The notes: generated from the letters alone by a model not told the origin. DNA of 64,000 bases from Candidatus Bathyarchaeota archaeon (GCA_963827165.1 CAWGZR010000010.1:320001-384000); one strand, 5' to 3'. Numbered from the stretch's first letter, positions 21,265-63,426 are shown. Program-made: numbers and translations.

Positions 21265-21267
21265 GTA

Positions 21268-27219: not shown

Positions 27220-27344
27220 ACCGACAACTTTTCAGATTTCCTTTACTGGTGTTGACTTTTTCCGGACTTGATTAGACTCAACCTGCAATGAGTCCAAGCC
27301 CCGAACCAAGAAAGCAACTCAAAACACAAACAAAAACTTTCTGC
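27220..27344 (+). repeat. dispersed element copy 1: degenerate GAC array + core
   Basis: Core ACTCAACCTGCAA..CCAAGCCCC..AAAGCAACTCAAAACACAAACAAAAA at 27276-27344; GAC at 27254/27265/27275. Confidence 0.75.
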
Positions 27345-27470
27345 ACCAAAAAATCTTGAAGCGCAGCAAAAAAGGACTTTTGTCGGTTTTCTTTGATTTC
27401 CATTTAGCAATTGGAATGCTTTCACTTTTTAGGTTATTGTAGATTTTTAGGTTTCTGTCAGTTTTGATGG

Positions 27471-27640
27471 GGGACTTTAGTGGACTTTAATGGACGGTAA
27501 AGGACGGCTATGGACTTTAAAGGACGGTAAAGCACGGTAAAGGACGGTAAACGACTTTAGTAGACTTTAAAGGACGGATGTTGAAGACAATTCAAGCTTA
27601 TCCACAAAAAAGCAACCCAAAACACAAAGAAAAAATTTGC
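27471..27640 (+). repeat. dispersed element copy 2: 11 x 10-bp units (nnGAC(TT/GG)TAA) + core
   Basis: gggactttag tggactttaa tggacggtaa aggacggcta ... aggacggatg, then TTCAAG..AAAAAAGCAACCCAAAACACAAAGAAAAAA. Confidence 0.9.
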
Positions 27641-27660
27641 CACACCTCTGCAAACTGCGA

Positions 27661-28287
27661 CTAGGGCTCAGCCATGAACTCGATGAAGTCTTTTAGGCTT
27701 CTGGGCTGCAGGGTGTAGTTAGTTTTTCTTTCCTGCCCGATTGTTGAGGAAGCTGTTGCGCCGTAATCGTGTCCAGGGTAAACTTCGACAGCGTCGTCTA
27801 GTTTTAGGAGCTTGCCAAAGAGGCTGTTGTACATGCTTTTTGAGCTGCCGCCGGGGAAGTCTGTTCTTCCGCATTCGCCGACAAACAGGGTGTCGCCGGT
27901 CAGAAGTTTTGTGCTATCCACCAGCAGGCAGATGCTGTCGGCGGTATGTCCAGGAGTATAAATCACACTGATAGGGATCTCGCCAACCCTCAAAATGTCT
28001 CCATCTTCAACGCCGACATCAAAGTTGACTTTCGACAGCTTGTAGGCAACGATTTTAGGGTGAAACATCGAGGTTAACTCTGCGTTTCCAGCGGTGTGGT
28101 CGGAGTGCCCGTGCGTGTTTATGACGTATTTTAAGTTGAATTCTTTTGTCTCCAGAACCTTGATGATTTCGCCGGCGTTAAAACTTGAATCAACAACCGC
28201 CGCTTCCTTCGTTGCCTCGTCTGCCACTATGTAGGAGAAGTTGTCGCTGTGCTGCTGGATTTGTTTGAAAAACATTTTTGCAACCAA
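27661..28287 (-). CDS. MBL-fold metallohydrolase (glyoxalase II-like)
   Basis: THGHSDH, TPGHT, TGDTLF, YPGH motifs. Confidence 0.9.
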   Translation of the reverse strand: MVAKMFFKQIQQHSDNFSYIVADEATKEAAVVDSSFNAGEIIKVLETKEFNLKYVINTHGHSDHTAGNAELTSMFHPKIVAYKLSKVNFDVGVEDGDILRVGEIPISVIYTPGHTADSICLLVDSTKLLTGDTLFVGECGRTDFPGGSSKSMYNSLFGKLLKLDDAVEVYPGHDYGATASSTIGQERKTNYTLQPRSLKDFIEFMAEP

Positions 28288-28330
28288 AAAAAGAATCAGA
28301 CAAGAGGCTTTTGTTCTTTTCGTTCAAGTT

Positions 28331-29083
28331 CTAAGAAGTCTGCGATAGCAAACTCGAAAGAGAGATCACATCCGAAGGAGGATAACCCGAATAGTATTTC
28401 CCGAAATAGCCAAAAACCTCCGTTTCCCGGCTCAGAAATGGCTTCAACCTGTCCGCCAAAACCGTTAGATTCGGCAACGTGTCGGTTTCGATTTTTCCCA
28501 GCAGCCCGTTAACTTTTTTTCGGTCCCCTTCCAACCGCACGTACAAAAAATCCGAGGTCACCTCTGCGGCCAGAGGCATATTGGGGCTATCAACCCATGC
28601 TAAAGCCGCTTTGTTAGCTCGCAGTAGAGCGTACAAATCCATGGTTAGCCAAGCTTTGTTTCTCACTTCGACGACGTAACGGTTTCTTTGGGGAAGTCTC
28701 TGTAGGTACGTAGCTAAGTCATTTATGCGGTCGACGCTGAAGTTTGGTGGAAACTGCATAAGCAGGCATCCGAGTTTTTCGCCGAGGAGTTTTGCCCTTT
28801 CGAGAAAAAAGTCGGTTTCTCTTATGCAGTCCCTGAGCATTTTGATGTGGGTGATGACGTTTGGGAATTTGAGTGAGAACTTGAAGTTTTCGGGGGTTTG
28901 ATTTTTCCAGTTGATGATCGCCTGCGCGGTTGGGACTCGGTAAAATGTGTTGTCAACTTCCACGGTGTCAAATCGGGTCGAGTAGTAAGTTAAGAAGTCT
29001 TTTGACGCGGTTTTTTCTGGGTAGAAATTGCCTTTCCAAAAGTTGTAGCTCCAGCCGATTGTGCCTAAATGGAGGTTTTGCAT
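28331..29083 (-). CDS. DUF72 (YecE-like) protein
   Basis: GTIGWSY, TVEVDNTFY, LMQFPP, VEVRN, YVRL motifs. Confidence 0.9.
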   Translation of the reverse strand: MQNLHLGTIGWSYNFWKGNFYPEKTASKDFLTYYSTRFDTVEVDNTFYRVPTAQAIINWKNQTPENFKFSLKFPNVITHIKMLRDCIRETDFFLERAKLLGEKLGCLLMQFPPNFSVDRINDLATYLQRLPQRNRYVVEVRNKAWLTMDLYALLRANKAALAWVDSPNMPLAAEVTSDFLYVRLEGDRKKVNGLLGKIETDTLPNLTVLADRLKPFLSRETEVFGYFGKYYSGYPPSDVISLSSLLSQTS

Positions 29084-29084
29084 G

Positions 29085-30515
29085 TTAGACTTTTCCTTTT
29101 AGGAGCAGCCAAGCGTTGTCTTCTTTAGCGTTTTTAAGCCGCACCAAAATGTAGCGACCCTTCATCTTTTGCCCGTTGAGGGTGACTTCGATTTTTTCTT
29201 TTTCCCAAAGTTTAGGTTCAAAATAGCCTTTGTCCCATATTTGGACTGTTCCAGCGCCATATTGCCCTTTGGGAATTGTGCCTTCGAAGCGCGCGTAATC
29301 GTAAGGGTGGTCTTCAGTCTGCACCGCCAGACGACGTTCACCGCTGATCATTGGGATGCCTTTGGGTACAGCCCAGCTCTTCAGAACTCCGCCGCTTTCC
29401 AGCCTTAGGTCATAATGGAGTGCTCTTGCATGATGTTCCTGGACAACGAAAATTAGTTTCCCTTCTTCTTTTTTCTCGTCACCTGTCGGCTCAGGTGTCT
29501 CTTCAAAATGACGTTTTGCCGAATACTCAGAAAGTTTTTCGTCGGATGCTGCGCATTTTGTGTTTTCCGTTATTTGGTCAAGCGAGCATTGTTTGGGGTC
29601 TTTATCCTCTCTTAAACTTTTGAAACGTGGCATTCTTAACCTCATCTCTCTTGTCACACATTGATAGATGACTTCGCACACAAAATGAGGCTCAAGCCAA
29701 GTCACCCTATCCGCCATTTCAACTGCAAACGGAGCAGCGGAAACGGTTTTGAGTTTTTCAAACTTATCTATCAACTCTTTAAGCATATCATCGCTGAACC
29801 CAGTTCCGACGTTACCTACATAAACTGGTTTACCATCTGCGCCATAGAGACCGAGTACCAAAGAGCCGAAGGTTTTTTCTCTGGATTTTTCTCCTCGTCG
29901 GTAACCAAAAACAACGCAGTCACAGGTTTTCAGCTCCTTGATTTTTAGCCAACTTCCGGTTCGCAAGCCTTCCTCGTATTGGCTATCTTTTCTCTTCGCC
30001 ATTACACCTTCCAAACCTTTGTCCACAACCAGTCGGAAGTAGGCTTCCCCTTTTTCCTCGATGAAGTCAGACAACAAAACGTTTCTTCCTTCGACGAGAG
30101 ATTCCTGCAAGATTTTTTTGCGTTCCAAAAGCGGCAACTTCGTGAGAGGTTTCCCGTCTTTCTCAATCACGTCAAAAACGATGTAAGTTGCTGGTTCCTG
30201 TTCCTGTCGCCGCTCGATTTCTTTCTGTGAAACTGCTTTGCCGCGCTCCAGCAACGCTTGGAAGTCGGGTTTTCCCTCATGCATCACCACGATTTCGCCG
30301 TCAACCACTAGGTTCCTACCTAAATGTGTGAGTTCTTCGAGTTCAGGAAAGTTGTATTTTAGTTCCTTTTCGTTACGACTCTTCACACTTAAGCTTTGGT
30401 TGATGTAGCTGATGGCTCGAAACCCGTCCCATTTTATTTCGAAAACCCAATCTTTATCTGAGAAGGCGCCCGGGGCGTCTTTTGCAAGCATTGGCCGGTA
30501 GACGTGGCCGCTCAT
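29085..30515 (-). CDS. ligD: NHEJ ATP-dependent DNA ligase fused to a C-terminal 3'-phosphoesterase (LigD LIG-PE)
   Basis: EIKWDGFR, EGVMAKR, LRMPRF (ligase); FVVQEHHARALHYDLRLE, SWAVPKG, EDHP, GQYGAG (phosphoesterase). Confidence 0.92.
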   Translation of the reverse strand: MSGHVYRPMLAKDAPGAFSDKDWVFEIKWDGFRAISYINQSLSVKSRNEKELKYNFPELEELTHLGRNLVVDGEIVVMHEGKPDFQALLERGKAVSQKEIERRQEQEPATYIVFDVIEKDGKPLTKLPLLERKKILQESLVEGRNVLLSDFIEEKGEAYFRLVVDKGLEGVMAKRKDSQYEEGLRTGSWLKIKELKTCDCVVFGYRRGEKSREKTFGSLVLGLYGADGKPVYVGNVGTGFSDDMLKELIDKFEKLKTVSAAPFAVEMADRVTWLEPHFVCEVIYQCVTREMRLRMPRFKSLREDKDPKQCSLDQITENTKCAASDEKLSEYSAKRHFEETPEPTGDEKKEEGKLIFVVQEHHARALHYDLRLESGGVLKSWAVPKGIPMISGERRLAVQTEDHPYDYARFEGTIPKGQYGAGTVQIWDKGYFEPKLWEKEKIEVTLNGQKMKGRYILVRLKNAKEDNAWLLLKGKV

Positions 30516-31373
30516 TTCTTTTCCAGCTGCTTAACCGTCTCACGCAATGCAACCATCAAGCTTTTAGCTTCGACTTCCTGAGGCTTTTCGATATGGATTT
30601 TTTCGCCTTTCACTTTCTGGGCGATTAATTCTTCAATCCGTTTCATGTATGAGTCCTGGAACTCTGCGATGTTGAATTCGCCTGAGAGTTCACTTACGAT
30701 TTTTATCGCCATGTCTAATTCTGCTTTTTCGGGTTCCTTAAGCTTATGAAGGTCCTCGAAGTCCTTGGGATCAACAACATCGTAGGCATAACGGAGTGTT
30801 GTGATTACGAGCGCGCCCTGGTAGGCGTGGAGCAGAGCAGGGGTATTCTTTTGTCCGCAGAGTTATTCGTCCCGCGCCAGCCTTGTTTTTCTTTTCGAGC
30901 GCCCGCAAAAGAAGCGTGTAGGCTTCTTTGCTTTTCTTTGGCAGAAGAGCATAGCTTTTGTCGAAGTAGATTGGGTCAACTGAGAAGTAGTCTACGAATT
31001 TGCTGATTCGGATTCGGTTGTCTGATTCGGGTTTAGCTGCGTCTAATTCGGCTTTGTCAAGGGTTATCCACTCATCTTTAGAGACCTCGTAGCCTCGGAT
31101 AACCTCGTTCCAGGGGACAATTTTGTCGTCTTTCGTGCACATTTTAACGTATTTGAGGGGTTGACCATCGGTTTTATGGAGAAAATGAAACGCTATGCCT
31201 TTGTCGTATATCATCGAGTATAACTGAACAGGAACGTTAACCAAACCAATTGTTATGCTGCCCGACCAGATGGATCTTCTCGGAGCCGCAGCGCTGACTT
31301 TCCCAATTGATTTCTCATCCATTTCAGAAGTGGCTTCATCAACATCATCTTTTTCTTGATTTTCCTGTGCCAT
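30512..31373 (-). CDS. ku: Ku protein, frameshift near 30840
   Basis: RSIWSGSITIGLVNVPV, RGYEV, YFDKSY; C-terminal FQDSY..SLMVALRET in ORF 30512-30712. Confidence 0.9.
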
Positions 31374-31375
31374 AC

Positions 31376-32251
31376 CTAAATCTCCAGATTACACTTTTTC
31401 TCAAAAATATTTTTCCACGGATCTTCTTTCCGTTTGACTACATTAAAAATATTGTAGTCGGAGGGGTTTATGCCTTTCTTAACTTCGCTCCATTCCAAAG
31501 GCGTCGAAACCGTGGCTTCAGGTGTCGGTCGCAGACTGTAAGGAACAACCATCGTACGCATAGGTGAATTCTGTAGGTAATCAGCGAAAACTTTGCCTGG
31601 TTTTTTTGTGTCTTTGAATTCGGAAACTACTATCTCGTTTTCCCTGGCCAATTCGATTCCGATTTCGTGGACGAAAGCCCTTGCTTCCTTGAAGTCATGT
31701 TCGGGAACAATCGGGATGACGACATGGAGCCCTTTTTTGCCTGAGGTTTTTACGAATGGCGTTAGCCCTAAGTCAATAAGTTTGTCTTTGAGCTGCAGCG
31801 AAACCTCCGCTGCGTCGCTAAGAGTTGCCGGGGGCTCGGGGTCAACGTCGAAAAACAGCATATCAGGCTTATCTAAATCATCGATCATCGAGAAAGGCAT
31901 ATGAATTTCCAGTGTCGCTAAGTTTGCGAGCCAGATTAACGTGTCTAAATCGTTGCATACAATGTAGTGAACATCTCGTTTCGACGCTGAAGAGTAAATG
32001 GTTTTTGTTTTGACCCATTGAGGCGTTCCCATGGGCGCGTTTTTTTCGAAAAAACCGTATTTTTCCCCTTTTATACCATCAGGGTACCTCGTTAAAACGA
32101 GAGGTCTATCCTTCATGAGTGGAAGCATTTTGGGCGCCATTCTAATGTAGTATTCAATAAACTGCCCCTTGGAAACCTGAGCTTCTGGAAAGAGGATTTT
32201 GTCCAGATTCGTAAGATTAACTTTGGTTAACTGTTTGAGGTCTTCCATCAT
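31376..32251 (-). CDS. NHEJ primase-polymerase (stand-alone LigD POL domain)
   Basis: TNLDKILFP, RYPDG, FFEKNAP, FDVDP, KTSGKKGLH, DYLQN, PYSLR motifs. Confidence 0.92.
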   Translation of the reverse strand: MMEDLKQLTKVNLTNLDKILFPEAQVSKGQFIEYYIRMAPKMLPLMKDRPLVLTRYPDGIKGEKYGFFEKNAPMGTPQWVKTKTIYSSASKRDVHYIVCNDLDTLIWLANLATLEIHMPFSMIDDLDKPDMLFFDVDPEPPATLSDAAEVSLQLKDKLIDLGLTPFVKTSGKKGLHVVIPIVPEHDFKEARAFVHEIGIELARENEIVVSEFKDTKKPGKVFADYLQNSPMRTMVVPYSLRPTPEATVSTPLEWSEVKKGINPSDYNIFNVVKRKEDPWKNIFEKKCNLEI

Positions 32252-32528
32252 AAATTTGCTCCAAAAGCAATAAAGCTGAAAGCACCGCGCTTCCAAATAA
32301 AGTAATGCGGATCTAGTCTTTTTCCTTTTTGGATATCTTGGAGCAAACTATTGTTTCATTTCGCGCGAGTTGTCCCTGAGAAAATAGTTTTTTTTATAGT
32401 TATGCCTATATACCCAGCCATATACTAAATATGAATGTCTGAATTAATAGAGAAAAAGTAAATTTTACCACTAAACTTTGCTTTTTTCGAGTTAATTCGC
32501 TAAACAAAAAAGGAAGGAAAATAAAAGT

Positions 32529-33158
32529 TTGAAATCAAGAAAGCCCACGCTGGAAGATCAGCTTGCCTTCATCTCTGCGCAGCATGGCGTTTACCCGACT
32601 GAACTGTTCCAATCTTTAGTTCAAGCGAAAGAACAGGGGAAATCGACGGCTGAAGATTTAACAATTGAGTATCGGGGAAGCGTAGGCGACCAAGCCATCT
32701 TCCTCATCAAGAAAGAGGGCAATGTTGTTGCTCAATTCCGAGTTCCAGAGGAGACACTTTCGAAAGCGGATGTCTCATTCGACAGTTCGATGGATACAAG
32801 CAGGGTTCGAAAAGAGATTGCGAGGCAAACGCCGACGCCGGCCCACGTTAAGATTGAGGATTTGCGGGTAGGCATGAAAAAGGTGAATGTGGTTGCTGAG
32901 GTTTTGGAGACTGCTAAACCGTCGAAAGTTCACACTCAATTTAGGGATAACGCACTTGTCTCAAACGCCACAATCGGGGATGAAACTGGAAAAATCCTGC
33001 TTTGCCTTTGGGATCAACAGGTCAACGCGGTTTCAACAGGGGAATACATTGAAGTAGCTAATGCGCACGTCGCCAGTTTTAAGGGTGAAAGGCAACTGCG
33101 TCTTGGAAAAAACGGAAAAATCACAAAGTTGGAAAACATCGCAAGCAAAACGGCTTAG
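32529..33158 (+). CDS. OB-fold single-stranded nucleic acid-binding protein (SSB/RPA-like) with N-terminal extension
   Basis: KIEDLRVGMKKVNV, IGDETGKI..LWD, FKGERQLRLGK motifs. Confidence 0.8.
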   Translation: MKSRKPTLEDQLAFISAQHGVYPTELFQSLVQAKEQGKSTAEDLTIEYRGSVGDQAIFLIKKEGNVVAQFRVPEETLSKADVSFDSSMDTSRVRKEIARQTPTPAHVKIEDLRVGMKKVNVVAEVLETAKPSKVHTQFRDNALVSNATIGDETGKILLCLWDQQVNAVSTGEYIEVANAHVASFKGERQLRLGKNGKITKLENIASKTA

Positions 33159-33340
33159 AAAACTTAAGCCGCCCAAACAAACCATTTTTTTAGAGGGTAC
33201 TGGTTTTTAGAATGGAAAACGTTCAGAAAGTTGTTTTAGCGCTCATTTCCAAGTTATTTGCATCGTCATTTTTTCGCCGTTCTAGAAGCAGTCTATTAAA
33301 TGCTAGCTTGCGTTGATGATTTGGTGAAAATCTTCTCATT

Positions 33341-33480
33341 TTGTAAAGAAATGTCAATTTATGTCAAATCAAGTCATTTCGTGTCAATTAACGTCAAATT
33401 GTGTCAAAAAAAGTATCAACCTGCAACTAATTCAAGCTTCTCCACTAAAAAGCAACCTAAAACGCAAAAGAAAAAAATCT
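33341..33480 (+). repeat. dispersed element copy 3: 6-8 x 10-bp units (nnGTCAnnnn) + core
   Basis: atgtcaattt atgtcaaatc aagtcatttc gtgtcaatta acgtcaaatt gtgtcaaaaa, then TCAACCTGCAA..TTCAAG..AAAAAGCAACCTAAAACGC. Confidence 0.85.
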
Positions 33481-33539
33481 CGTTTCAGAAACCATCGACT
33501 TGCACTTCCTACAGGCTTCTCTGCCGATATTTTCCGGCG

Positions 33540-33636
33540 ACTATTATAGCATAAAATAGCATATTATACCATCCAGTTGCAACCAAGACGCTCCAGTCAA
33601 AGAAAGCAACCCAAAAAACACCCAAAAAATTCTGCA
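33540..33636 (+). repeat. dispersed element copy 4: 3 x 10-bp units + core
   Basis: ctattatagc ataaaatagc atattatacc, then GTTGCAACC..AAAGCAACCCAAAAAACAC..TTCTGCAG. Confidence 0.7.
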
Positions 33637-33700
33637 GAAAAAACACAAAACCCCAACTAACTCGCACTTTCTTTGCCAACTGTTAACGAGCATTGGATTT

Positions 33701-33811
33701 CAGATATTTATAGAGATTTATGGAAATTCTGGGAGATTTAGGGATATTTTAACTCAACCTGCAACCAGTCCAAGGCCCAAACCAAAAAAGTAACCCAAAA
33801 ACAACTTTTTC
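33701..33811 (+). repeat. dispersed element copy 5: 5 x 10-bp units (nnGAnATTTA) + core
   Basis: cagatattta tagagattta tggaaattct gggagattta gggatatttt, then ACTCAACCTGCAACCAGTCCAAG..AAAAAAGTAACCCAAAA. Confidence 0.85.
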
Positions 33812-33992
33812 AAAACGCGAAGCAACAACTATTGCTCGATCAAAGACGTCAGCAAAATATCAAGGGCAAACAGGCACTTTAAAGATAGATAAGTCTATTT
33901 AATAAAAAATCATTCATTTGGACTATTTGAAAAAAGAAAATAAAGGCCAAAATGGCCTAAAGATGGGTCGCGATTTTAGTTGTTGATGCTTT

Positions 33993-35165
33993 TTAGAAGA
34001 AGCTTTGGATCGGCGAGTCGTTGTGTGCAGGTTCTGCTGAACCGATTTTCTCGATTCTTGTTTTTGTTAATGCTTTGATGTTGTTGAAGTCTGACATTTC
34101 GCCGTAACTTACGAGCGTTATGGCTGTGCCGTCTTCGCCTTTTCGGGCGGTTCTGCCTATGCGGTGGAAGTATACGGGTGCGTCCATTGGGACATCATAG
34201 TTGATTATGTGTGTTATGCCTTGGATGTCTAAGCCTCTTGCGGCCACGTCTGTTGCTACTAGCAAGTTTAGCCTTCCCGCCTTGAAGTCGCATATTGCTC
34301 GGTCCCTTTGCGCTTGTGTGAAGCCGGCGTGTAGCGCTTGTGTGCGGTAACCTTTCCGGTAAAGTTGATCTGCTACTCTGCTTGTGTCCCTGCGTGTTCG
34401 ACAGAAAATTATGGCTTTGTCCACGTGGTCTTCGTGTATTATCTTTAAGAGGGCATCGAACTTGTCATGTTGTGCTACTACTGTGTAGTATTGTTTCATC
34501 TGGGTTAGGGCGATTTCGTCTTTGCTGACAAGGATTTTCTGCGGGTTCTTCATGTATCGGTCGCAGACGCGCATAACTGAGTCGTCTATTGTTGCGGAGA
34601 AAAGACTTGTTTGCCTGTTGGGTGGTGTTTTTGAAAGTATGTATTTGATGTCTTCTATGAAGCCCATGTCCAGCATTCGGTCCGCTTCATCAAGAACCAC
34701 CATACGGATGGATGCAAGGTTTAGCACGCGCCTTTCCATAAGATCGATTAGTCTGCCAGGCGTGCCAACAACAATGTGAACACCGTTTGACAAAGCATGA
34801 ATTTGCTTGTTAATCGATTCTCCACCGTAAACAGCCAAAACCTTGACTCTCGCATATTTACCGAAAGATGCTAGGCTTTGAGCTACTTGGACAGCTAACT
34901 CGCGGGTTGGCGTTAAAACTAAACCTTGAACGCCGCGAACATCGCGGTCCAGACGTTGGATCATTGGAAGACCGAAAGCTGCGGTTTTTCCTGTCCCAGT
35001 TTGTGCTTGCCCGATGACGTCTTTGCCTTCGAGCAAGGGGATTATTGCTTGGGCTTGAATTGGAAAAAGACTCTCAAACCCGAGTTCTTTTACACTACTA
35101 AGGAGTTCCTCTGACAAAGGTAAGTCCTTAAACGATTGAATTTGCATATATTTATTTCCTATCAC
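33993..35165 (-). CDS. DEAD-box RNA helicase
   Basis: AQTGTGKT, PTRELA, DEAD, SAT, HRIGRTAR motifs. Confidence 0.95.
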   Translation of the reverse strand: MIGNKYMQIQSFKDLPLSEELLSSVKELGFESLFPIQAQAIIPLLEGKDVIGQAQTGTGKTAAFGLPMIQRLDRDVRGVQGLVLTPTRELAVQVAQSLASFGKYARVKVLAVYGGESINKQIHALSNGVHIVVGTPGRLIDLMERRVLNLASIRMVVLDEADRMLDMGFIEDIKYILSKTPPNRQTSLFSATIDDSVMRVCDRYMKNPQKILVSKDEIALTQMKQYYTVVAQHDKFDALLKIIHEDHVDKAIIFCRTRRDTSRVADQLYRKGYRTQALHAGFTQAQRDRAICDFKAGRLNLLVATDVAARGLDIQGITHIINYDVPMDAPVYFHRIGRTARKGEDGTAITLVSYGEMSDFNNIKALTKTRIEKIGSAEPAHNDSPIQSFF

Positions 35166-35409
35166 AAATGTTTCATGATTTCCTAAAAGCCTAAGAGCTC
35201 TTTGCGATCCATGAGTTAATGTGATACCTCAAAAGGCAATTTCCGCGTATAAAAACGTTTAGCAAAATAAAACGCAAAGCGTAACATTCCCAGCCCCGTT
35301 TTTTAAACAGGGGATGCATGTGACTGTCAAGGTTCAATCACATACACAAAAGTAGTATAAACCTCCTGATTTAATCAACCAATTCCTAAGTAAATTTAGA
35401 GGCGAAAAA

Positions 35410-35682
35410 ATGAGTAAACAAAAAGCGAAAAAACCGCCACCATACTTTTACGATGGCCCCCCTGAAAGTGCGGCAGAGAAGGAAGGGGAAACCGAAGACG
35501 TCTACGATACGGGAGAAAGAGAAACCATGCTGGAAGAAGACAACATTACCGCTGCCGAAGAAGGCTTCATGAAGGGGCACGAACAAGAGCCGCCTGCAAA
35601 AAAGGAAACACGCAAAAAAGCAGTCAGCCATGACGATAGTATTTCGGTTGAATTAGCGAAAGAAGATTCTGAAGAAGACTAG
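35410..35682 (+). CDS. small acidic hypothetical protein
   Basis: GAGGCG RBS; 90-aa E/D-rich ORF. Confidence 0.6.
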   Translation: MSKQKAKKPPPYFYDGPPESAAEKEGETEDVYDTGERETMLEEDNITAAEEGFMKGHEQEPPAKKETRKKAVSHDDSISVELAKEDSEED

Positions 35683-35868
35683 CAAACCAAACACTTGCTG
35701 CATTCACAAGTATTTTTTTTTATGTTTAGGCAACTTGCAGCTTGTGATAATGTTTACAAAATCCAGGCGTTGGAAGTCTTGAAATCCTCCATAGTTCTTT
35801 TGGCTGAACAACACCACTAACCATAAAAGGTAGAAAGTAGAATCATGATTGAGGCTTAAAACGAAGCA

Positions 35869-45124: not shown

Positions 45125-45128
45125 AAAT

Positions 45129-48014: not shown

Positions 48015-51030
<3,016 letters not shown>

Positions 51031-51267
51031 GGCCATAGGTGGTGTTTGTTTGGCGTTTGGTGAAATCACTTATCGTATATTATTCGTGTTGTTGCGTCGT
51101 TGCTTCTTCTTGTTTGGCCTATGCATGGTGTCATTTTGATCTTCGCGCGTGTCTTGGCGAAGCCAATCACCCTTCACTCCTCATCGATGACGGTGGGGAG
51201 TTGCATCTTGCTAATGGTATAACCCATGTTGCTAAGTTCAGTTAAAAGCGGCTATCGCAAATATAAG

Positions 51268-51285
51268 GATTGTGTTGGCGGCAGA
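51268..51285 (-). promoter_or_regulatory. probable TATA box of the 23S transcript
   Basis: CTTATAT on the minus strand ~240 bp upstream of the 23S 5' end, upstream of the processing-stem arm. Confidence 0.5.
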
Positions 51286-51543
51286 TTAAGGTTTATTGAA
51301 GCTTGGTTTGGCGCTTCAAGGGGGTTTTGTTGTTTGCTTGCATGTTTTTTCACGTTCGTCTTAGTTTGGGTTAATGTGCCCGGCTTATGACGTCGGGAAG
51401 ATAAGTTTAGGCGCAGTTTGCAAATATAAGGGTGACGGCATGGCTGAAACAGAAACATGGGTTTTTGTCCCAAATAAAACATTCTTTATTTTTGGTTCGT
51501 TCTTAGCAGTGAATGCATCTCATTCCCATTTTAGGCAGAGCGA

Positions 51544-51690
51544 GCAATTTTTTTTCTTTGTGTTTTGGGTTGCTTTTCTGCAAAGAGACTTAGATCATCT
51601 GCAGCATCCGTCCTCAATAGTCTACGATGGTCTACCAAAGTCAACTAATGGCCCTTACCGTCTTAAGTCCAAGACGTCCACCAAAGTCAA
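51544..51690 (-). repeat. dispersed element copy 6: GAC array + core
   Basis: GTC on + at 51610/20/30/40/60; rc core GACGGATGCTGCAGA..AAAAGCAACCCAAAACACAAAGAAAAAA, close to copy 2. Confidence 0.85.
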
Positions 51691-51797
51691 TTAACAGATT
51701 TAAAACTCTCAAAAATTGGAACGATTCAAGAAAAAGTAGACACAAAATGTTTGGTATGAACAGAGAAGCAAGGTGTAAAAACGTGGTATTTTTTAAC

Positions 51798-51900
51798 TGC
51801 AGATTTTTTTCTTTGAAATGGGTTTCTTTTTTGGTTTGGGGCTTGATTGCGTTGCAACTATTCTCCAAAAACATCTTAAAACATCTCAAAAGATCGCTTG
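51798..51900 (-). repeat. dispersed element copy 7: GAT array + core
   Basis: ctc/atc at 51863/73/83/93; rc core GTTGCAACGCAATCAAGCCCCAAACCAAAAAAGAAACCC. Confidence 0.75.
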
Positions 51901-51935
51901 AAGAAAATGTGGAGCAGGAGCGGATGAAGTTTTCG

Positions 51936-52090
51936 GCAGGAAATTTTTTGCTTTGTGTTTTAGATTGCTTTTTTTAGGACTTAATTGGTTAGGTTGCGTA
52001 CAAAAAGTCATAAACGTATACAACGTCATAGAAAGTCATGAAACATCGCCAAACTCATAAAGTCATAAGACGTCACTAAACGTCTACAAA
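51936..52090 (-). repeat. dispersed element copy 8: about 10 units of 8-10 bp (TGAC) + core
   Basis: aaagtcata/aacgtcata-type units; rc core GCAACCT..AAAAAAAGCAATCTAAAACACAAAGCAAAAAATTT. Confidence 0.75.
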
Positions 52091-52416
52091 AAACAATTGG
52101 TGGCCACCTCTCCCTTAACGTAGAAGTCAAAGATCGTGACGAAAAACAAACCCCAGAAGATTTTCCTGAAAAGGGGTCTGCAGCTTTTAGACCCAAGCAG
52201 TCCTCGAGAGTCGATAAAAACGTCTAAGGTTCAACTCAGGCATCTCGTCAGAAGGGGAGCGTCAAAATTGGTCAATATAATGCAAACGTCGAGTGGTTAC
52301 ATTCCGAATCGACGCTACAATGGAGATTAATCTGAACCGAGTAGCTACTTGGCAAAAGCTAATTACTTGCCTGCCCAATTAATCTCTCAACTTAGTTCAG
52401 CAGCCGATGTGTTAGT

Positions 52417-53373
52417 TTGGGCAAACTCAAATTCGGCGTGTTCCTTCCGTTCTATGCGTTCCCGAAAGACCAAGCCGAAACTTTCAGCCTAATCCGAGAG
52501 CGTTGTTTTGGAGTGTGAGCGTTTAGGTTATGATTCGGTTTGGCTTGATGATCATTTGATGTATAGTGACTGGCCGATTCTTGAGTCTTGGACAACACTG
52601 TCCGCGCTGTCCGCCCTAGACCAGCAGGGTGCGGCTTGGAACCATGGTTTCCTGCGTGGCACATCGCAACCCTGCGTTGTTGGCGAAGGCGGCGGCGACC
52701 CTTGACGTGGTTTCAGGCGGCAGGTTGGAGTTTGGGGTGGGCGCTGGAATCGGGATGGCTGAGCATGCCGCTTATGGGTTTGATTTTCCCAAGCCAGCGG
52801 TACGGATTGAGCACTTATGCGAGTCTTTAGAAGTGATTAAGCGGCTGTGGACTCCGGATAGGGCAAACTTTGAGGGAAAATATTTCCCTCTTAAAGATGC
52901 GGTTTGCCTTCCTAAGCCCGTACAGAAACCTCACCCGCCAATAACCGTGGGAGGCAGCGGCGATTTATTGCTGCGGAAAGCGACTGCTCGCTTTGCTGAC
53001 AGGTTCGACTTTGGATTTTTACCGTCCATTGAGCTTTTCAGGCGAAAGCTTGGGGTTTTAGAGAAAGCATGCAAACGATTGGCAGGGATTTCGGCGAGAT
53101 TGAGAAGTCCTGCTGGCCTGGCGGACAAGTAATCCTAGCCAAGAACGAGAAAGAGTTGCAGGAAAAGATTGACCAAGAAAAATGTTTTGGGTTTAAGCCT
53201 TGGAAGAGTTTAAGCAGGTTAATTTGACGGGTACACCAGCGCAGATTGTTGAGCAACTGCAGGTTTACGTGGATTTGGGCGTGACGTATTTTATGCTTTA
53301 CTTTTCCGATTTGCCGCGGGTTGACGGGTTGAAGCTTTTCGCGGAATCCGTCGTCAAGTCAGATGAGCGATAG
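52417..53373 (+). CDS. LLM-class (probably F420-dependent) oxidoreductase, several frameshifts
   Basis: LKFGVFLP; GYDSVWLDDH; RNPALLAKAAATLDVVSGGRLEFGVGAG; PKPVQKPHPPI motifs. Confidence 0.85.
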
Positions 53374-54296: not shown

Positions 54297-55925
54297 TTAT
54301 TCCGAAGGGGTAGGAGTGTACCGACTAAGGTACCCTTTTGAGATTTTTGGTTTGCGTGGTTTCCATGCGTCTAAGCGTTCTTTAAGCTCTTTATCCGACA
54401 GCTCAACACGTAGAATCCTGCCAGGGATGTCGATGGTTATGGTGTCGCCGTTTTTAAGTGCCGCTATGGGTCCGCCGTCGAAGGCTTCAGGTGCGACGTG
54501 TCCAATGCATGGTCCACGCGTGGCTCCGCTGAATCTGCCGTCCGTGATGAGTGCTACGCTTTCGCTAAGACCCATTCCCGCGATGGTTGCGGTGGGGATG
54601 AGCATTTCAGGCATTCCAGGTCCGCCTCGGGGGCCTTCGTAACGGATGACGACGACGTCGCCTGCCACAACCTCGTGGCGTTTCATAGCTTCCTCTGACT
54701 GTCGCTCGGAGTCGTAGACTTTTGCTGGACCTTGGTGCTTCATCATCTTAGGCGAGACAGCAGCCATTTTGACGACTGCGCCCTTTGGCGCCAAGTTGCC
54801 CCGCAAGATCGCTATGCCGCCTTCCTTGTGAACGGGGTTGCTAAGCGGGCGAATGACTTCAGCATTGATTACTCTTGCGTTTGAAACGTTTTCACCGACG
54901 GTTTTGCCTGTAACAGTTAGTGCGTCAAAGTGGATAAACGGTTTTAGCTCAGCCATCAGGGCGGGTAAGCCGCCTGCGTTTCCCAAATCAGCCATGTCAT
55001 AGATGCCGCTTGGGACCATACTGCATAGGTGTGGGACTTTGCGTCCGATTTCATCGTAAGTAGAAAGGTTAAGTTGTGCTCCTGCTTCGTTGGCGATAGC
55101 GGTGAGATGCAGAACTGTGTTTGTTGAGCCGCCCAACGCCATGTCGACTGCTGCGGCGTTGTCGAAGGCTTTCTGCGTCATAATTTGAGAAGGCAAAATA
55201 TTCCGTTTTACCAGCTGCATGATTTTCACGCCAGACTCTTTGGCGATTCTCTGTTTGAACGCGCCGTTTGCGAGGGCTGTTGCGCAGTAGGGCAGAGACA
55301 TACCCATAGCTTCGGTCATACACGCCATGGTGTTGGCTGTGAACATGCCGTTGCAGCTGCCGCATCCTGGACACGCTACGTTTTCCAGCGCAGCCGATTC
55401 CGCAGGAGTCATTTTGCCTGCGAAGACTTTGCCGACTGCTTCGAAGACGTTGTTGACGCCGACTTTTTGCCCTTCAAGGATGCCTGACTCCATGGGTCCT
55501 CCTGTCACAGCGATTGCGGGAACGTTAATCCTTGCAGCAGCCATCAGCATGCCCGGGGTGATTTTGTCGCAGTTAGAAATCGTCACCAACCCATCTAGGC
55601 GGTGCGCCTGCATCATAATTTCGACTGAGTCAGCGATGAGTTCGCGGCTTGGGAGACTGTAGCGCATGCCTTCATGGCCCATGGCTATACCATCGCATAC
55701 AGCTATGGTGTTAAATTCAAAAGGAGTTCCGCCGGCTTCCAAAATGCCTTCTTTCACTGCTTCACCTAAAATGCGCAGGTGAACATGTCCTGGAACGATG
55801 GAGGTGTAACTGTTGGCTATCCCTATGAATGGTTTAGCAATATCCTCATCGGTTAAACCCAAGCTTTTAAGCAAGGCGCGGTGGGCTGCCCGTTCGGGTC
55901 CAAGTTTGATTTCGTCGCTTCTCAT
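54297..55925 (-). CDS. ilvD: dihydroxy-acid dehydratase
   Basis: [47 protein letters not shown] motifs. Confidence 0.96.
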
Positions 55926-55988
55926 AAATTTCACTTCTTGCAAGATACTGTCACCAATAATTTTATATTTAAGGTTGACGCTCAAAAA

Positions 55989-57530
55989 ATGGAATGTGAC
56001 TTAGAATGGGGTATTGCTTTATTTAACCGCTTCCCAAAACATGTAAAGTTTTTAGACACCACCCTAAGAGATGGGGAACAAACACCCGGAGTATCACTTG
56101 TACCTGAAAACAAACTGCGAATAGCCCAGCGGCTGGACGAGCTCGGCGTGGACATTATTGAAGCTGGGTTTGCGGCTGTTTCTGAAGGTGAAATGGAAGC
56201 TGTCAGCCTTATCGCAAAGCAGAAGTTAAGGGCTCAAATCTCAAGTGCGGCAAGAGGAACAATAAACGATATCGATGCAGTTCTCAAGAGCGGCGCTTCA
56301 ACTATTAGCATGATCATTCCAACGTCTGACTTGCATATCCAATGCAAACTTCACAAGACACGGGAACAGATGCTAAAAGTTGCAGACGAATGCATAACCT
56401 ACGCAAAAGATCATGGCTTAGTCGTTGAGCTTTTGGCTGAAGACGCAACCCGAACAGACCCTAATTACTTAAACCAGTTCTTCAATGCCGCAGTTGAAGC
56501 TAAAGCGGACAGACTGATTGTATGCGACACAGTAGGCATCTTAACTCCTGAACGATCAGCCGAACTCTTCTCAAAACTCAAAGAAAACTTCAAGATCCCA
56601 ATAGGCGTGCACTGTCACAACGATTTCGGAATGGCCGTTGCTAACAGCATTGCAGCCTTAGGCTCTGGAGCTGAAGAAGTTCACGCAACCATAAACGGAC
56701 TAGGCGAACGCGCTGGAAACGCTTCACTTGAAGAAATAGTCCTCACATTAAATTCACTCTACAGAATAGACGTAAAAATCAAGACCGAACTGATCTACGG
56801 AACATCCCAACTAGTGTCCAGATTAACCGGGGTTTATGTACAGCCAAACAAGGCAATCGTCGGCGAAAACGCCTTCACCCACGAATCAGGAATTCACACG
56901 CAAGGAATGCTTGCAAACCCACTGACTTATGAACCGATAGCGCCTGAGCTGGTAGGGGCAACCCGCCGCATATCCGCAGGAAAGCATTCAGGTTCACATG
57001 CGATAAAGGCAGCCTTAGAGGACATGGGATTGAGACCGTCTGAGGTGCAGTTTAAAGAAATTTTCCAACGCATCAAAACCTTGGGTGATAAAGGCAAGAT
57101 GGTGATGGATGCAGATGTTTTGGCGATTGCAGAAAACGTTATGGGTTTAGGCAAAGAGAAGCCGATTCAGCTTGAGGAGATGACGTTTGTTGGCGGCGAT
57201 AAGGTTACGGCTACCGCGTCGGTTAGGCTGCGGCTGAATGGCAAGGATGTTTGGGGTACCGCCGTAGGCGTTGGACCTGTTGATGCAGCGATAAATGCTG
57301 TTAAAGATGCGATCGAAGAGGTTGAACCCATAACATTGGAGCAGTACATGGTTAAAGCGATTACCGGAGGCACGGACGCGATGGTTGAAGTTGAGGTCCG
57401 GATGCGTAAAGGCGACAGGACAGTAAGGGCAACCGGCGTTAGGGAAGACATTGTTAAAGCCAGCATTGAAGCAGTGCTAAGCGCCATGAACGTTTTAGCA
57501 ACGGATTACAACAACAAAAAACAAGCTTAG
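55989..57530 (+). CDS. 2-isopropylmalate synthase / (R)-citramalate synthase family (LeuA/CimA)
   Basis: [30 protein letters not shown]-terminal regulatory GVGPVDA; LeuA and CimA not distinguishable by eye. Confidence 0.9.
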
Positions 57531-57815
57531 AACCGAGATTTCTCAATTTTTTTGTTTTCTTGGTTTGAAATTGAACTTGGAGGTTCAAAATCTGATGTTT
57601 TTTAGTGGTAAATGTGGTTGGTTTGGACTTAAATTTGGAAATGAGGCGTGAAATGGGGTTTTGGTGTTGAGTTTGTTGAACCTTTTGCATGGTCTTTTGT
57701 GAGTGGTTTGAACTTCCTGTATGTTGAGAATGTTGTTAGTGGTTGTATTTTGCACGTGTGTTTTGGAAGTGGCCGTTGAAGTTGATAGAAAGTTTTTGTT
57801 GCTTGTTGATTTGTT

Positions 57816-58589
57816 TTATGCGGTTATTTGTGGGGGCGGACGTACACGCCTTCTGCCAAGTTTAACCCGCAGGGCTATGCGGTAGAGTTTTCGCAATGAT
57901 TTTACCAGAGCCTCCACTGTGGGGGCGGATGAGTAGATGAGTGGGATTTGCTCGTACTCGGCGATGCGTATGGATTCGGCGTCAGGCGGGTTTTTGTGGA
58001 AAACTACCAATCGCGGTTTGAGGCTGCTAACCCGCACAATCATCATAGGCAAAGATCCCTCTTCCACATTGGTGAAAACCAGCGCCCGATCAGTAGTTGA
58101 TCCAAAAAGCTGCGAGTACTCCAACCCAGAGTAGGCTTCAACTGCTTTTCGGCTATCCACAACCGTGTACCCATTAATCTCTTTAACGAACTTATCTTTG
58201 CAAGCAACGACTTCGCCGCCGATAGCCTTACATAAATATTCAACCCGAACGGGAATTGGAAACTCACGCAGGTCCACCACAGCCATGCTTGGGGAACTGG
58301 TAAGTTTGGCGAATTCCCGTATGAATCGGCTGCCTTTTTGCTCGTCGATGTGGAGAAGTGAGAGGACGAAGCGGCGGATGAATTTGGCACCTGGGCTTTT
58401 TCGTCGCCCGCTTTCGTAGTCGCTTATCACAGCTGAAGAAGAGAGCCCCATTGTTTCGGAAAGAGTAAGTTGAGAAACAGCGAACAGTTCCCGCCATTTG
58501 CGCATGGTGGCGCCTGGTTTGCTTGAAAGAATTATTTCTCCAGCGATCCGTCTTCCCAAAACTTCCCGAAGACTAGGCGACACAGACAC
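57816..58589 (-). CDS. conserved archaeal XRE-HTH regulator with DRTGG-like C-terminus
   Basis: IAGEIILS..MRKWRELF..ISDYESGRRKSPG; STTDRALVFT. Confidence 0.8.
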   Translation of the reverse strand: MSVSPSLREVLGRRIAGEIILSSKPGATMRKWRELFAVSQLTLSETMGLSSSAVISDYESGRRKSPGAKFIRRFVLSLLHIDEQKGSRFIREFAKLTSSPSMAVVDLREFPIPVRVEYLCKAIGGEVVACKDKFVKEINGYTVVDSRKAVEAYSGLEYSQLFGSTTDRALVFTNVEEGSLPMMIVRVSSLKPRLVVFHKNPPDAESIRIAEYEQIPLIYSSAPTVEALVKSLRKLYRIALRVKLGRRRVRPPPQITA

Positions 58590-58617
58590 TGAAAGGCTCT
58601 CCAGCTTGCACTCTCCC

Positions 58618-61533: not shown

Positions 61534-61710
61534 CGCGACAAACTCCTCAACAATATCGTCAGTTCTTTGATACCCACACGCTATATGATTTGTTACTTAG
61601 CAATTCGAACAATCAGTCTTGATTTGGAATAAACGCAAACATTGAAAGACCAATTCTTTGAAGAGCCTGGGCGCAATGTATTTTCCTGATTGAGTACTAT
61701 AATGGTTAAT

Positions 61711-62604
61711 CTAGAGTATGAAGATTATGCAGATTCCTGCAACAATCGCTGTTGCCCCCAGCATTGCTTTGGTTGTCATTTTTTCGTGGAAAAGCATGAA
61801 GCCTGCGACTGCTGCGAAAAGAGGCGAGGTTGAAGAGATAGGCACTGCCCGCGTAAGCGATGTGTATTGGAAGCTATAGTTAAGAAGCAGCCATCCGACA
61901 CCGTTCGCCACTAAACCCCCAACGCATAACGCAGCTATGGTGCTCCTCTTCATCTTGATGAAACCGTGCTCTTTGTCAATGAAAGGTGCCAGAAGCATGA
62001 AGAATAAGGCGATTGAAGCGATCCTAAGCGTTATGATCGCGTAGTTTGCGCCCAATGTGGTTACGCCGGAGACGGCTACGTTCATCATGCTAATGCTAAC
62101 TGACCAGATGACCGCCGTCACCAAACTAACGGTGAGACCAATGAAAACCAACCTGCCCTTAACACCCGCCTCTTCACGGCTTTTTTCTCTGCTCAGCAGC
62201 AAGATACCGAACAGGATTATGAGGGCACCTGCGACTTCAACGATTGATAAGGGTTGACCAAGCAGAGTTGTCGCCCAAATCAGGCTAAATAAGGGATACG
62301 TTGCCGCTAAGGGGACGGCACGTGACACCCCCACATACTTGAGACCAATCATGTACAAAGTGTCCCCGACGCCCAACCCGATGACGCCGCTAACAATCAC
62401 CAAAACCATCGTTTTCATAGGCAACGCGGCTAACGTTCCAGCTAAACCGAAAATCAGCAAGAAGGCAACGAGCACGCCAGCGTTTGTTGCGCAGCGAACT
62501 ATGTTTGCGGAAAGTGGTTTAGTGCTTAATAGGGCTTTTCTGTAGAGTATCGGCGCTATTGCCCAGCTTATGGAGGCGCCTAGTGCAGCGATTTCTCCAA
62601 TCAT
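61711..62604 (-). CDS. EamA/DMT family transporter
   Basis: 10 TM helices in two repeats; GVSRAVPL..YPLF, HEK motifs. Confidence 0.85.
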   Translation of the reverse strand: MIGEIAALGASISWAIAPILYRKALLSTKPLSANIVRCATNAGVLVAFLLIFGLAGTLAALPMKTMVLVIVSGVIGLGVGDTLYMIGLKYVGVSRAVPLAATYPLFSLIWATTLLGQPLSIVEVAGALIILFGILLLSREKSREEAGVKGRLVFIGLTVSLVTAVIWSVSISMMNVAVSGVTTLGANYAIITLRIASIALFFMLLAPFIDKEHGFIKMKRSTIAALCVGGLVANGVGWLLLNYSFQYTSLTRAVPISSTSPLFAAVAGFMLFHEKMTTKAMLGATAIVAGICIIFIL

Positions 62605-62818
62605 GGTTTAGGTGACCGCGAAAAACTACAATTGCAAGTTGGCTGTTAAGAACTTTCGTTTGACTCGGGACGATTTGAATTGTGATTAACGAGTTTTTGA
62701 TGGAAACAGGGTTCATCTAGCCGCCGTTTTAGCGCTAGCGTATGTTTTGAGTCTGAATTGCATTTATTAGGAAGTTTAGCTTATTGTTGGGTACTTCCGC
62801 AATGAACAGAAAAAAGGA

Positions 62819-63118
62819 GTGAATGTAAAAATGCAGGAAAAATCAAGTGATGTCGTCTTCGTTGGAAACAAACCACCAATGAGCTATGTGCTCGCTCTCA
62901 TAACAGCTTTTAGCAGCGGGCAAAAAGAAATAACTTTGAAAGCCAGAGGCCAAGCAATAACCACCGCCGTTGACGTAGCAGAAATTACAAGAAGCCGCTT
63001 CATCAAAGACATCCATGTCAGCAAAATCGCAATCGGAACAGCCGAAATGCCACCACGAGAAGGCGAAAACAGGTCCAGGATGGTTTCAACGATCGAAATC
63101 AGCATGGCAAAAGAATAA
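62819..63118 (+). CDS. albA: DNA/RNA-binding protein Alba
   Basis: VGNKPPMSYV, KARGQAITTAVDVAE, VSTIEI motifs. Confidence 0.95.
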   Translation: MNVKMQEKSSDVVFVGNKPPMSYVLALITAFSSGQKEITLKARGQAITTAVDVAEITRSRFIKDIHVSKIAIGTAEMPPREGENRSRMVSTIEISMAKE

Positions 63119-63266
63119 ACCACGCGACCAACAAAACACACAAATGGGAGTTTTTTAAGCTCTCAATCTTTTTACATTGTTCAAGATTTTTTGTGAGTAA
63201 TTTTTTGGGATTTTTGTTTCGGCTTTTTGTTTGGCAAGAGCGAGCGCCGCAGATTTGCAGTTTTTT

Positions 63267-63426
63267 GCAAAAAATTTTTGTTTGTGTTTTGGGTTGCTTT
63301 TTTTGTTTGGGGCTTGGTTTGGTTGCAGGTTGAGTCTTTAATAGTCTGCAATAGTCGTTAATAGTCAATAGTAGTCTGCAGTAGTCAATAATAGTCAATA
63401 AAAGTCAACTGGGTGTTACCACGGTC
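63267..63426 (-). repeat. dispersed element copy 9: 8 x 10-bp units + core
   Basis: GTC on + at exact 10-bp steps 63334-63404, and again at 63424; rc core aligns ungapped to copy 1 (about 59/69 by manual count). Confidence 0.9.

Follow-up and report, generated by a model that had tools for sequence, protein, structure and literature searches.

A dispersed intergenic repeat of soil and peat Bathyarchaeia that joins a 10-bp-periodic array to a conserved core

A 64,000-nucleotide stretch of a Candidatus Bathyarchaeota archaeon genome (GCA_963827165.1, CAWGZR010000010.1:320001-384000; hereafter the window, with positions counted from its first letter) carries nine copies of a two-part intergenic element, in which an array of tandem decamers precedes a conserved core. 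Together with matches from other assemblies the copies number 160, and they firmly identify a lineage-specific, duplicative, non-coding, two-part intergenic repeat of soil and peat Bathyarchaeia. Bacterial interspersed non-coding repeats are already known, among them repetitive extragenic palindromes and bacterial interspersed mosaic elements (REP/BIME), BOX elements and miniature inverted-repeat transposable elements (MITEs); the architecture described here, a helically phased decamer track with a conserved core, seems undescribed. Natural cases in which period, phase and length are kept while the letters change are rare, and such a pattern would point to selection on DNA shape. Tentatively, and at a probability of roughly one in three, we favour a duplicative architectural element that works at the level of DNA, in which a wrapping track in phase with the helix would adjoin a sequence-specific core.

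Anatomy and spread of the element

A core profile (nhmmer, seven training cores) gave nine matches in the window and nothing further at E ≤ 10; two of these, both weaker, were recovered beyond the training set (E 1.7e-6 and 8.5e-6). A 25-nt degenerate core pattern matched the window six times, compared with 0.00 matches expected from 100 shuffles. Tandem Repeats Finder (TRF) placed period-10 arrays, with 20- or 30-bp super-periods, directly 5′ of six cores, and the remaining three arrays are short or degenerate and were read by eye only (Table 1). The copy number, strands, consensus and intergenic setting given in the original prediction, which was made from the window alone, were all borne out, as were its coordinates to within a few bases. 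Its statement that an array precedes each core held for eight of the nine copies, which have a recognizable 5′ array of ~10-bp units, and was weakest for element 1.

The whole element measures ~110–190 bp, with the decamer array on the 5′ side followed by the core. The core runs from CAACCTGCAA to AAAGCAACCCAAAACACAAAGAAAAAA and has the consensus CAACCTGCAA-acAAtTCAAgCtctAAAtC-AAAAAAGCAACCcAAAACACAAAGAAAAAA-atTt; it is ~65 bp long and A/C-rich on one strand, and its right half (27 bp) is nearly invariant. Its forward strand is free of T-runs, and its reverse strand reads as runs of T6–7, T4 and T6. Runs of five or more T (T5+), an archaeal termination signal, occur in 61 of 137 arrays and are missing from the other 76.

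Autocorrelation had been expected to peak at 10 upstream of the cores, and it did so: in the 80 nt upstream of the core, the best lag between 5 and 15 was 10 in 140 of 160 copies, compared with 14 of 142 control windows located 420–500 nt upstream, and the mean lag-10 identity was 0.53 upstream of cores versus 0.27 in controls. Across all stretches, TRF returned 238 rows of period 10, 70 of period 20 and 41 of period 30, with at most 68 for any other period. When arrays of these three periods were merged, 127 of 142 adjoined the 5′ side of a core match, and most of the other 15 were coding low-complexity repeats or lay beside sub-threshold cores.

The arrays also keep a fixed register to the core. 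In 139 copies anchored on CAACCTGCAA, C recurs at −2, −12, −22 and onwards to −72, at frequencies that fall from 78% to 50%. This C is preceded by G-A, and the next four positions are 76–94% A/T, with A and T each common; the weak unit consensus shared by the copies is nGAC-W-T-T-T-nn. The core-proximal unit is richer in A/T (TTTAA; 84% versus 61% at the equivalent position of upstream units). In-register units fall into ~22 families that differ from each other at a mean of 7 of 10 positions, and all have a period of 10. The proposal that unit sequence differs from copy to copy while the period is kept therefore stands as regards the period, which is 10 throughout; the units are less free than was proposed, as they share a register and a consensus. 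The interchange of A and T at in-phase positions suggests, from the sequence, a readout of shape rather than of bases.

Array length is unimodal, with a mode of 6–7 units, a range of 1–12 and no broad tail; the longest TRF array spans 108 bp. Quantization of array length in steps of three units (30 bp) was not seen. We rejected polar growth of the array from the core, for which there was just a weak gradient, partly produced by the end-of-array rule. Subfamilies that are defined by the array unit also have their own left-core variant and recur across loci and genomes.

A scan of a genome collection with the core pattern listed 101 stretches, from which counts per genome and host range are lower bounds. 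The profile gave 151 matches in 97 of these stretches, which with the window makes 160 copies. One match (L046, from a Succinivibrionaceae bin) is a chance partial match and four stretches (L006, L022, L024 and L101) have no profile match, so that the element is present in 96 of the 101, from at least 16 assemblies. Fifteen of these are labelled Candidatus Bathyarchaeota or Bathyarchaeia, and come from sets of metagenome-assembled genomes from soil, bog and peat; three assemblies have at least 18–20 profile matches apiece. The sixteenth (DATIXS) is labelled Candidatus Acidoferrum, and the element lies on its short contigs L038, L048, L052, L060, L072 and L093. At 90% identity over 892 nt, one DATIXS contig matches a Bathyarchaeota contig, so the label of these contigs is probably a case of binning contamination, with archaeal contigs in a bacterial bin. 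An assembly artefact is unlikely, given the same architecture in 16 independent assemblies. The window is 67–77% identical to the nearest syntenic listed stretches and therefore comes from a related but different species; with synteny this distant, we rejected orthology of its four element-bearing sites to the listed stretches. The single-stranded DNA-binding protein (SSB)-like gene occurs in five related stretches, with no elements after it.

No open reading frame (ORF) fits the element, and the ORFs that overlie copies are repeat artefacts. Inverted repeats are absent from three of the four window regions that hold copies, and the fourth has one 12-nt A/T inverted pair, away from the element ends. 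The flanks of five near-identical pairs share no target duplication. Eight folds (four copies, both strands) were no better than those of shuffles (z −2.0 to +1.4), and the element had no Rfam match at the gathering score, nor at E ≤ 1 over positions 26900–34000; on these grounds we rejected a structured RNA. Neither plasmid nor phage collections contained anything similar, and full-text literature searches returned no description of a decamer track fused to a conserved core. The view that this is neither a CRISPR array nor an insertion sequence (IS) or MITE, and not a recognized family, is upheld by the lack of spacers, ORF, terminal inverted repeats and target duplications, and of any Rfam, plasmid, phage or literature match.

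Copying, persistence and placement among genes

Unlinked loci within single assemblies carry arrays and cores that are 91–99% identical, end sharply and are unrelated outside; therefore, array and core multiply as one unit. The pair L036/L079 is 98% identical from −74 to +93, L009/L078 is 99% identical apart from an array difference of exactly three units (30 bp), and L008/L044, L004/L074 and L048/L093 show the same pattern. On the left, the copied segment ends at the array start, and on the right it ends at most ~15 nt past the A-run. The alternative raised earlier, that of a non-autonomous mobile unit or non-coding RNA, gains support from these copies in its mobile part; the part concerning a structured RNA is unsupported by the folding results. 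Elements also mark a rearrangement: between L060 (603–3607) and L064 (4221–6929) a 2.7-kb segment is inverted, and both breakpoints fall within two inverted cores.

Orthologous sites were compared in ten pairs, by mean identity, between genomes ~75–95% identical. Arrays had an identity of 0.40–0.52 and were unalignable in seven of the ten pairs, with the period of 10 still present. Core identity was 0.70 in the left half and 0.81 in the right; it was 0.59 in the 40 nt after the core and 0.79–0.88 further downstream. Upstream of Rpp21, one conserved core is joined to three unrelated arrays in three genomes. In close orthologous pairs the element as a whole evolves at the pace of its flanks, except for array indels of 12 and 21 gapped columns, or ~1–2 unit lengths.

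The 160 copies form 112 clusters, of which 79 are single, 21 double, 9 triple and 3 quadruple. None of the 33 multi-copy clusters is of mixed strand: copies always lie head to tail, with a core-to-core spacing of ~140–220 bp in most. Twelve clusters overlap a predicted ORF (≥100 amino acids) by more than 40 nt and the others are intergenic. The 84 clusters with both flanks available lie between tandem (50), convergent (20) or divergent (14) genes. A link to gene orientation was rejected, as clusters that share a strand with the downstream gene (51) are about as many as those on the opposite strand to it (53). Downstream genes in the same orientation are varied and include rpoB, nop5, Rpp21, eIF-6, aIF-2B, AlaRS, Lsm, transporters and radical-SAM enzymes. 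There was no link to local skew (GC, 48 versus 46; AT, 40 versus 54).

Several neighbours have a promoter of their own. The 23S rRNA gene of the window has two CCTTATATTTGC boxes (51262–51273 and 51425–51436, minus strand, ~160 bp apart) downstream of the three elements of region C, and the core of element 8 lies ~110 bp upstream of the first of these promoter-like boxes. A TATA-like box stands between element and gene at tRNA-Val, as does the box AAGTATTATGT at Rpp21, and the signal recognition particle (SRP) RNA has its own box, read in L060; in L064 and L028 the SRP RNA begins ~70 nt after the core. A promoter linked to tRNA or rRNA genes was rejected on account of these boxes at the 23S, tRNA-Val and SRP RNA genes. 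Genes whose 3′ ends face the element have their own T5+ run before it in 47 of 83 cases, made up of 26 of 43 where the core is the nearer part and 21 of 40 where it is the array; control-gene expectations at the same distances are 0.38 and 0.33, respectively. Because neighbours have their own boxes where these were read, and mostly meet their own T5+ run first, we read the element as neither promoter nor terminator of neighbouring genes.

The SRP RNA site was seen in at least two assemblies, with the element upstream and in the same orientation (L064, 4221–4678; L028, 3879–4344), and the L060 flank aligns there too. Identity between assemblies is 99–100% in the SRP RNA region and just 66–79% in the adjoining element. 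Neighbouring sampled clusters on one contig (for example, CAWCSI010000002.1 and CAWCSI010000003.1) agree in strand for 20 of 26 pairs, and for seven of the eight pairs that are more than 50 kb apart. This small sample of listed matches hints at a polarity of elements on the scale of the chromosome.

Weighing the possible roles of the element

We favour a DNA-level role because period, the phase of A/T against G/C, and length are conserved and the letters are not, because the interchange of A and T suggests a readout of shape, because the exact 10-bp period is that of histone-wrapped DNA, and because the phylum encodes histones and Alba. Free DNA has a pitch of 10.5 bp, whereas DNA wrapped on histones has one of ~10 bp, and the footprint of archaeal histone tetramers to hexamers is near 60–80 bp. 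That a protein might occupy one DNA face along a phased track is plausible, and three results fit it: arrays have a unimodal length, the strong/weak phase persists from one unit family to the next, and orthologous arrays are replaced with the period kept. Bathyarchaeota genomes are reported to encode both histones and Alba (PMC6136690).

In the mechanism that we envisage, the element would act as DNA, not as RNA or protein. Its 10-bp period would put two G/C positions and an A/T run of 4–6 bp on opposite faces of the helix, so that a track of 60–80 bp would bend one way and suit wrapping on an abundant architectural protein; our guess is a histone first and Alba second. The right core may serve a dedicated factor as its nucleation or boundary site, or may form a stiff edge of A-tracts. 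Selection would keep the period, phase and length of the track and not its letters, while units turn over by slippage and by exchange between copies. The nucleoprotein knot formed in this way would act as a marker or insulator at intergenic boundaries, and may also be the substrate for copying and recombination of the element. A more specific version, which we consider doubtful, has the elements as genome-dispersed chromatin-positioning modules, in which the core nucleates or bounds histone (or Alba) on a shape-selected track and the modules serve as landmarks or insulators that spread as a unit. Such landmarks would include sites beside the 23S rRNA, SRP RNA, tRNA-Val, rpoB and nop5 genes, possibly with chromosome-wide polarity.

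A number of points weigh against an architectural role. The protein partner is a guess, and no histone gene was found among the Pfam-scanned ORFs of the window. Gain and loss of whole units keeps the register automatically, so fixed register alone is no proof of selection; the shared GAC-WTTT could come from ancestry, and conservation of the right core could reflect gene conversion among copies rather than function. In close orthologous pairs the core (0.89) changes at a rate similar to that of its flanks (0.85–0.92). The units differ in predicted intrinsic curvature (T-tracts, AAATTT, TTTAAA) and follow no single structural rule, and no enrichment was found beside any single gene class.

Several of the same observations bear on other readings. 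A selfish, non-autonomous mobile repeat without host function, with a core recognized by a transposase, a recombinase or a replication–repair route and an array that is a slipping satellite tail, is possible if somewhat unlikely. It would account for near-identical copies with sharp common ends at unlinked loci of one assembly, for copies that differ by whole array units, for subfamilies (unit plus left-core variant) that are common to several loci and genomes and stand side by side in head-to-tail clusters, for strictly intergenic placement without preferred orientation, and for the L060/L064 inversion with its breakpoints inside inverted cores. However, the element has no terminal inverted repeats, target duplication or hairpin, and among the neighbours of the 112 clusters no family of transposases or integrases recurs. 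A search for a second repeat that could be the other end recovered array extensions only. Copies persist at orthologous sites in genomes ~75% identical and the right core is conserved like coding DNA; moreover, the ~22 families have changed their letters and none its length, although neutral slippage would be expected to alter unit length too. We also rejected an autonomous partner: when 806 ORFs from all stretches were clustered, the recurrent neighbours were transporters, an SSB-like OB protein, peptidases and similar proteins, and one recurrent 'ORF' was a spurious reading of the element itself. There was no similarity between the element and the single IS of the window (13486–14334), and no evidence was found for an enzyme that extends the array.

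Less probable again is a portable promoter or small-RNA unit, with TTTAA (−10 to −6) as the TATA box, a start near +17 (TTCAAGC) and an unstructured, A/C-rich transcript of ~70–160 nt that would stop at flanking terminators or at T-runs in the array that follows. The A/T-rich core-proximal unit, the T-runs that are present in arrays and on the reverse strand of the core and absent from its forward strand, and the single orientation of copies within clusters are all consistent with it, and promoter-carrying intergenic repeats of halovirus HF2 (PMC8707807) are an archaeal precedent. Yet the A/T-rich box, at −11 to −5, is unlike the canonical TATA boxes of this genome and lacks the TA steps of the promoters CCTTATATTTGC and TTTTATATA. 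Apart from the arrays, conservation is lowest in the 40 nt after the core, so no 3′ part of an RNA is conserved; structure and an Rfam match are likewise absent, downstream genes have TATA boxes of their own, and half of the copies run towards a convergent gene from its 3′ side. Why the array should have a strict 10-bp period and 6–7 units would also go unexplained. A site for site-specific recombination, which by analogy would have the core as crossover point and the phased array as an accessory wrapping arm, we regard as improbable. Parallels for such arms are those of lambda attP, the accessory sequences of Xer cer and psi, and the end arrays of Tn7 and Mu. The head-to-tail clusters, the inversion with both breakpoints inside inverted cores, the exchange of orthologous arrays at the array–core border and the lack of target duplications would all fit; but the core lacks paired inverted repeats flanking a central spacer, no recombinase gene linked to the element was found, ~22 array types are too many for one arm-binding domain, and ordinary homologous exchange between the 27-bp, near-identical right cores could give the same patterns. 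Very improbable, finally, is a two-way transcription stop or insulator, in which T-runs of the array would act in one direction and the T6–T7 runs on the reverse strand of the core in the other. Those runs, together with the arrays that hold T5+ and the position of elements between genes of either orientation, speak for it. Against it, facing genes mostly reach their own T5+ run first, the clusters between divergent starts need no stop, more than half of the arrays have no T5+ run, and a terminator does not need 10-bp phasing.

Comparison with known systems places the element, by analogy, nearest in kind to the bacterial interspersed repeats (BOX, REP/BIME and MITEs), with positioning repeats and ParR-type centromeres as physical analogues. 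BOX elements of Streptococcus pneumoniae are likewise dispersed, intergenic, non-coding and modular, with a variable tandem module beside conserved ones, and they too are numerous, at ~100 or more per genome. They are bacterial, have a boxB unit of ~45 bp and form stable RNA or DNA stem-loops, whereas the present unit is 10 bp at helical pitch and the element has no fold. REPs resemble the element in forming composite clusters, in being hot spots of rearrangement and as reported binding sites for nucleoid proteins; they consist of GC-rich palindromes in alternating orientation. The Bathyarchaeia element, by contrast, has no palindrome or stem-loop and lies head to tail, and no Y1 transposase gene was found near it; REP/BIME have been described as abundant extragenic repeats with RAYT transposases (PMC2817692). 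Like MITEs and other IS-derived repeats, the element is small, non-coding and intergenic, with subfamilies of recent near-identical copies, but it lacks their terminal inverted repeats and target-site duplications.

A conserved A/T-rich segment at one end of direct repeats, which are best conserved beside that segment, recalls a CRISPR leader and its array. CRISPR repeats are ~23–50 bp long and are separated by unique spacers of similar length, with few arrays per genome, whereas the decamers are contiguous, reach at most ~12 units or ~110 bp, have no spacers and occur in 160 copies with no cas genes nearby (no Cas family among 29 + 47 window ORFs scanned against Pfam). Plasmid centromeres and iterons such as parC/ParR share with the element direct repeats in helical phase (here in 140 of 160 copies, in fixed register); there, direct repeats of 10–11 bp or 20 bp align a protein polymer on one DNA face. 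A replicon has one or two such centromeres or iteron arrays, each of which pairs a single repeat sequence with a single protein. The element instead has ~22 unit families and no adjacent partition or Rep gene, with no ParA, ParR or Rep family among its recurrent neighbours, and the centromere-like segregation site that had been proposed is unlikely given 160 copies, ~22 unit types and their scatter over contigs. Nucleosome-positioning repeats of the TATAAACGCC type alternate A/T runs with G/C at ~10 bp. The arrays show this alternation too, over at least 60 bp at their modal length of 6–7 units plus the junction unit, and units such as TTTAAAGGAC come close to those repeats in pattern. Bailey et al. 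reportedly described, in 2000, sequences selected in vitro by the archaeal histone HMfB. Positioning repeats are laboratory or satellite sequences, whereas the element is dispersed, genomic and fused to a conserved core, and is known here from its sequence. The intergenic repeats of HF2 are reported to be archaeal promoter modules of 29 and 58 bp (PMC8707807). They resemble the element in being tens of base pairs long, intergenic, and conserved in sequence and position among relatives, but they are viral, every one is directed towards a gene, and they have no decamer array.

Should the track prove to position histones or Alba, the element would be a native positioning sequence and would supply testable, sequence-encoded landmarks in an uncultured and globally abundant soil lineage. 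If it is only selfish, it would still be a novel kind of prokaryotic mobile repeat that lacks inverted ends, target duplications and a known enzyme. Either way, the element is of use as a mark of rearrangement breakpoints and as an easily applied lineage tag in the sorting of metagenome bins, where it has already picked out the archaeal contigs within the Acidoferrum-labelled bin.

The copies in the window and their surroundings

All nine window copies lie in four intergenic regions, A to D (Table 1).

Table 1. Positions of the element arrays, cores and intergenic regions in the window
Feature	Position	Strand	Details
Element 1 array	27252..27278	+	weak, ~3 GAC-phased units, spacing 11 and 10 bp; by eye, not in TRF output
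Element 1 core	27279..27347	+	start CAACCTGCAA, A/C-rich right half; anchor 27279; nhmmer 27264-27347, E 1.3e-16
Element 2 array	27472..27577	+	~10 units GGACTTTAAA / GGACGGTAAA; TRF 27472-27575, period 10, 10.4 copies; 30-bp super-period 92% matches
Element 2 core	27578..27643	+	subfamily variant GGACGGATG...TTCAAGC; nhmmer 27562-27643, E 3.2e-17
Element 3 array	33342..33416	+	~7 units (T/A)GTCAA(A/T)TnN; TRF 33351-33414
Element 3 core	33417..33484	+	nhmmer 33403-33484, E 7.3e-15
Element 4 array	33538..33572	+	short, ~3 units with ATAGCAT; by eye
Element 4 core	33573..33641	+	divergent left end CCAGTTGCAA; nhmmer 33558-33639, E 7.3e-12
Element 5 array	33700..33754	+	~5 units GAGATTTAnG; TRF 33702-33749
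Element 5 core	33755..33800	+	right half decayed; nhmmer 33748-33800, only model positions 10-62, E 1.7e-6
Element 6 array	52003..52084	-	~8 units (T)GAC(G/T)TTnnn plus indels; TRF 52003-52084, period 10, 8.8 copies, 18% indels
Element 6 core	51931..52002	-	nhmmer 51931-52016, E 3.1e-14
Element 7 array	51866..51897	-	~3 units GATGTTTTnn; TRF 51868-51895
Element 7 core	51796..51865	-	divergent, CCCATTTC replacing CCCAAAAC; nhmmer 51796-51871, E 8.5e-6
Element 8 array	51609..51690	-	degenerate, ~8 units (T/G)GAC...; by eye, under TRF threshold
Element 8 core	51543..51608	-	same subfamily as element 2; nhmmer 51543-51623, E 5.9e-18
Element 9 array	63333..63408	-	7 units (T/A)GACTAnTnn; TRF 63333-63408; 30-bp super-period 89% matches
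Element 9 core	63261..63332	-	nhmmer 63266-63347, E 1e-14; converges on alba 3′ end
Intergenic region A	26923-27661		start of fragmented DUF3131 gene to stop of metallo-beta-lactamase-fold gene
Intergenic region B	33158-33993		convergent stops of SSB-like OB gene and DEAD-box helicase gene
Intergenic region C	51035-52629		upstream of 23S gene
Intergenic region D	from 63118		after alba stop

The window is archaeal and holds a complete 23S rRNA gene (48015–51035, minus strand); the 13 kb upstream of it contain no 16S gene, and the window has no tRNA gene. Words of the core that are complementary to 23S rRNA were short, chance-like and without a control, and we did not use them. The alba gene next to region D (62819–63118, plus strand) has an Alba Pfam match.

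Beside region A, the DUF3131-family gene (25510–26923, minus strand) is split into ORFs of 103, 143 and 199 amino acids; its relative in L031 is a single ORF of 509 amino acids, and the window gene is probably a pseudogene. Between elements 1 and 2, just ahead of the array of element 2, lies a short periodic stretch (27422–27465, plus strand; period 18, 2.4 copies). A fragment of a luciferase-like monooxygenase gene (52629–53132, plus strand; profile positions ~68–186 of 314) borders region C.

A low-GC island (10000–24000; 33–42%) of glycosylation and polysaccharide genes contains a DDE_Tnp_1 transposase gene (the IS at 13486–14334, plus strand) and is free of the element, whose nine copies are confined to the part of the window with higher GC. 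A nucleotidyl-transferase gene (7314–8167, plus strand) is seemingly broken into two ORFs (profile positions 2–53 and 143–222). Positions 29085–32296 (minus strand) hold a complete-looking non-homologous end-joining set, with a LigD ligase plus phosphoesterase, Ku and a LigD primase-polymerase. In 1-kb bins, GC skew reaches +0.35 at 57001–58000, by far the maximum of the window, in a bin that overlaps ORFs without a family match.

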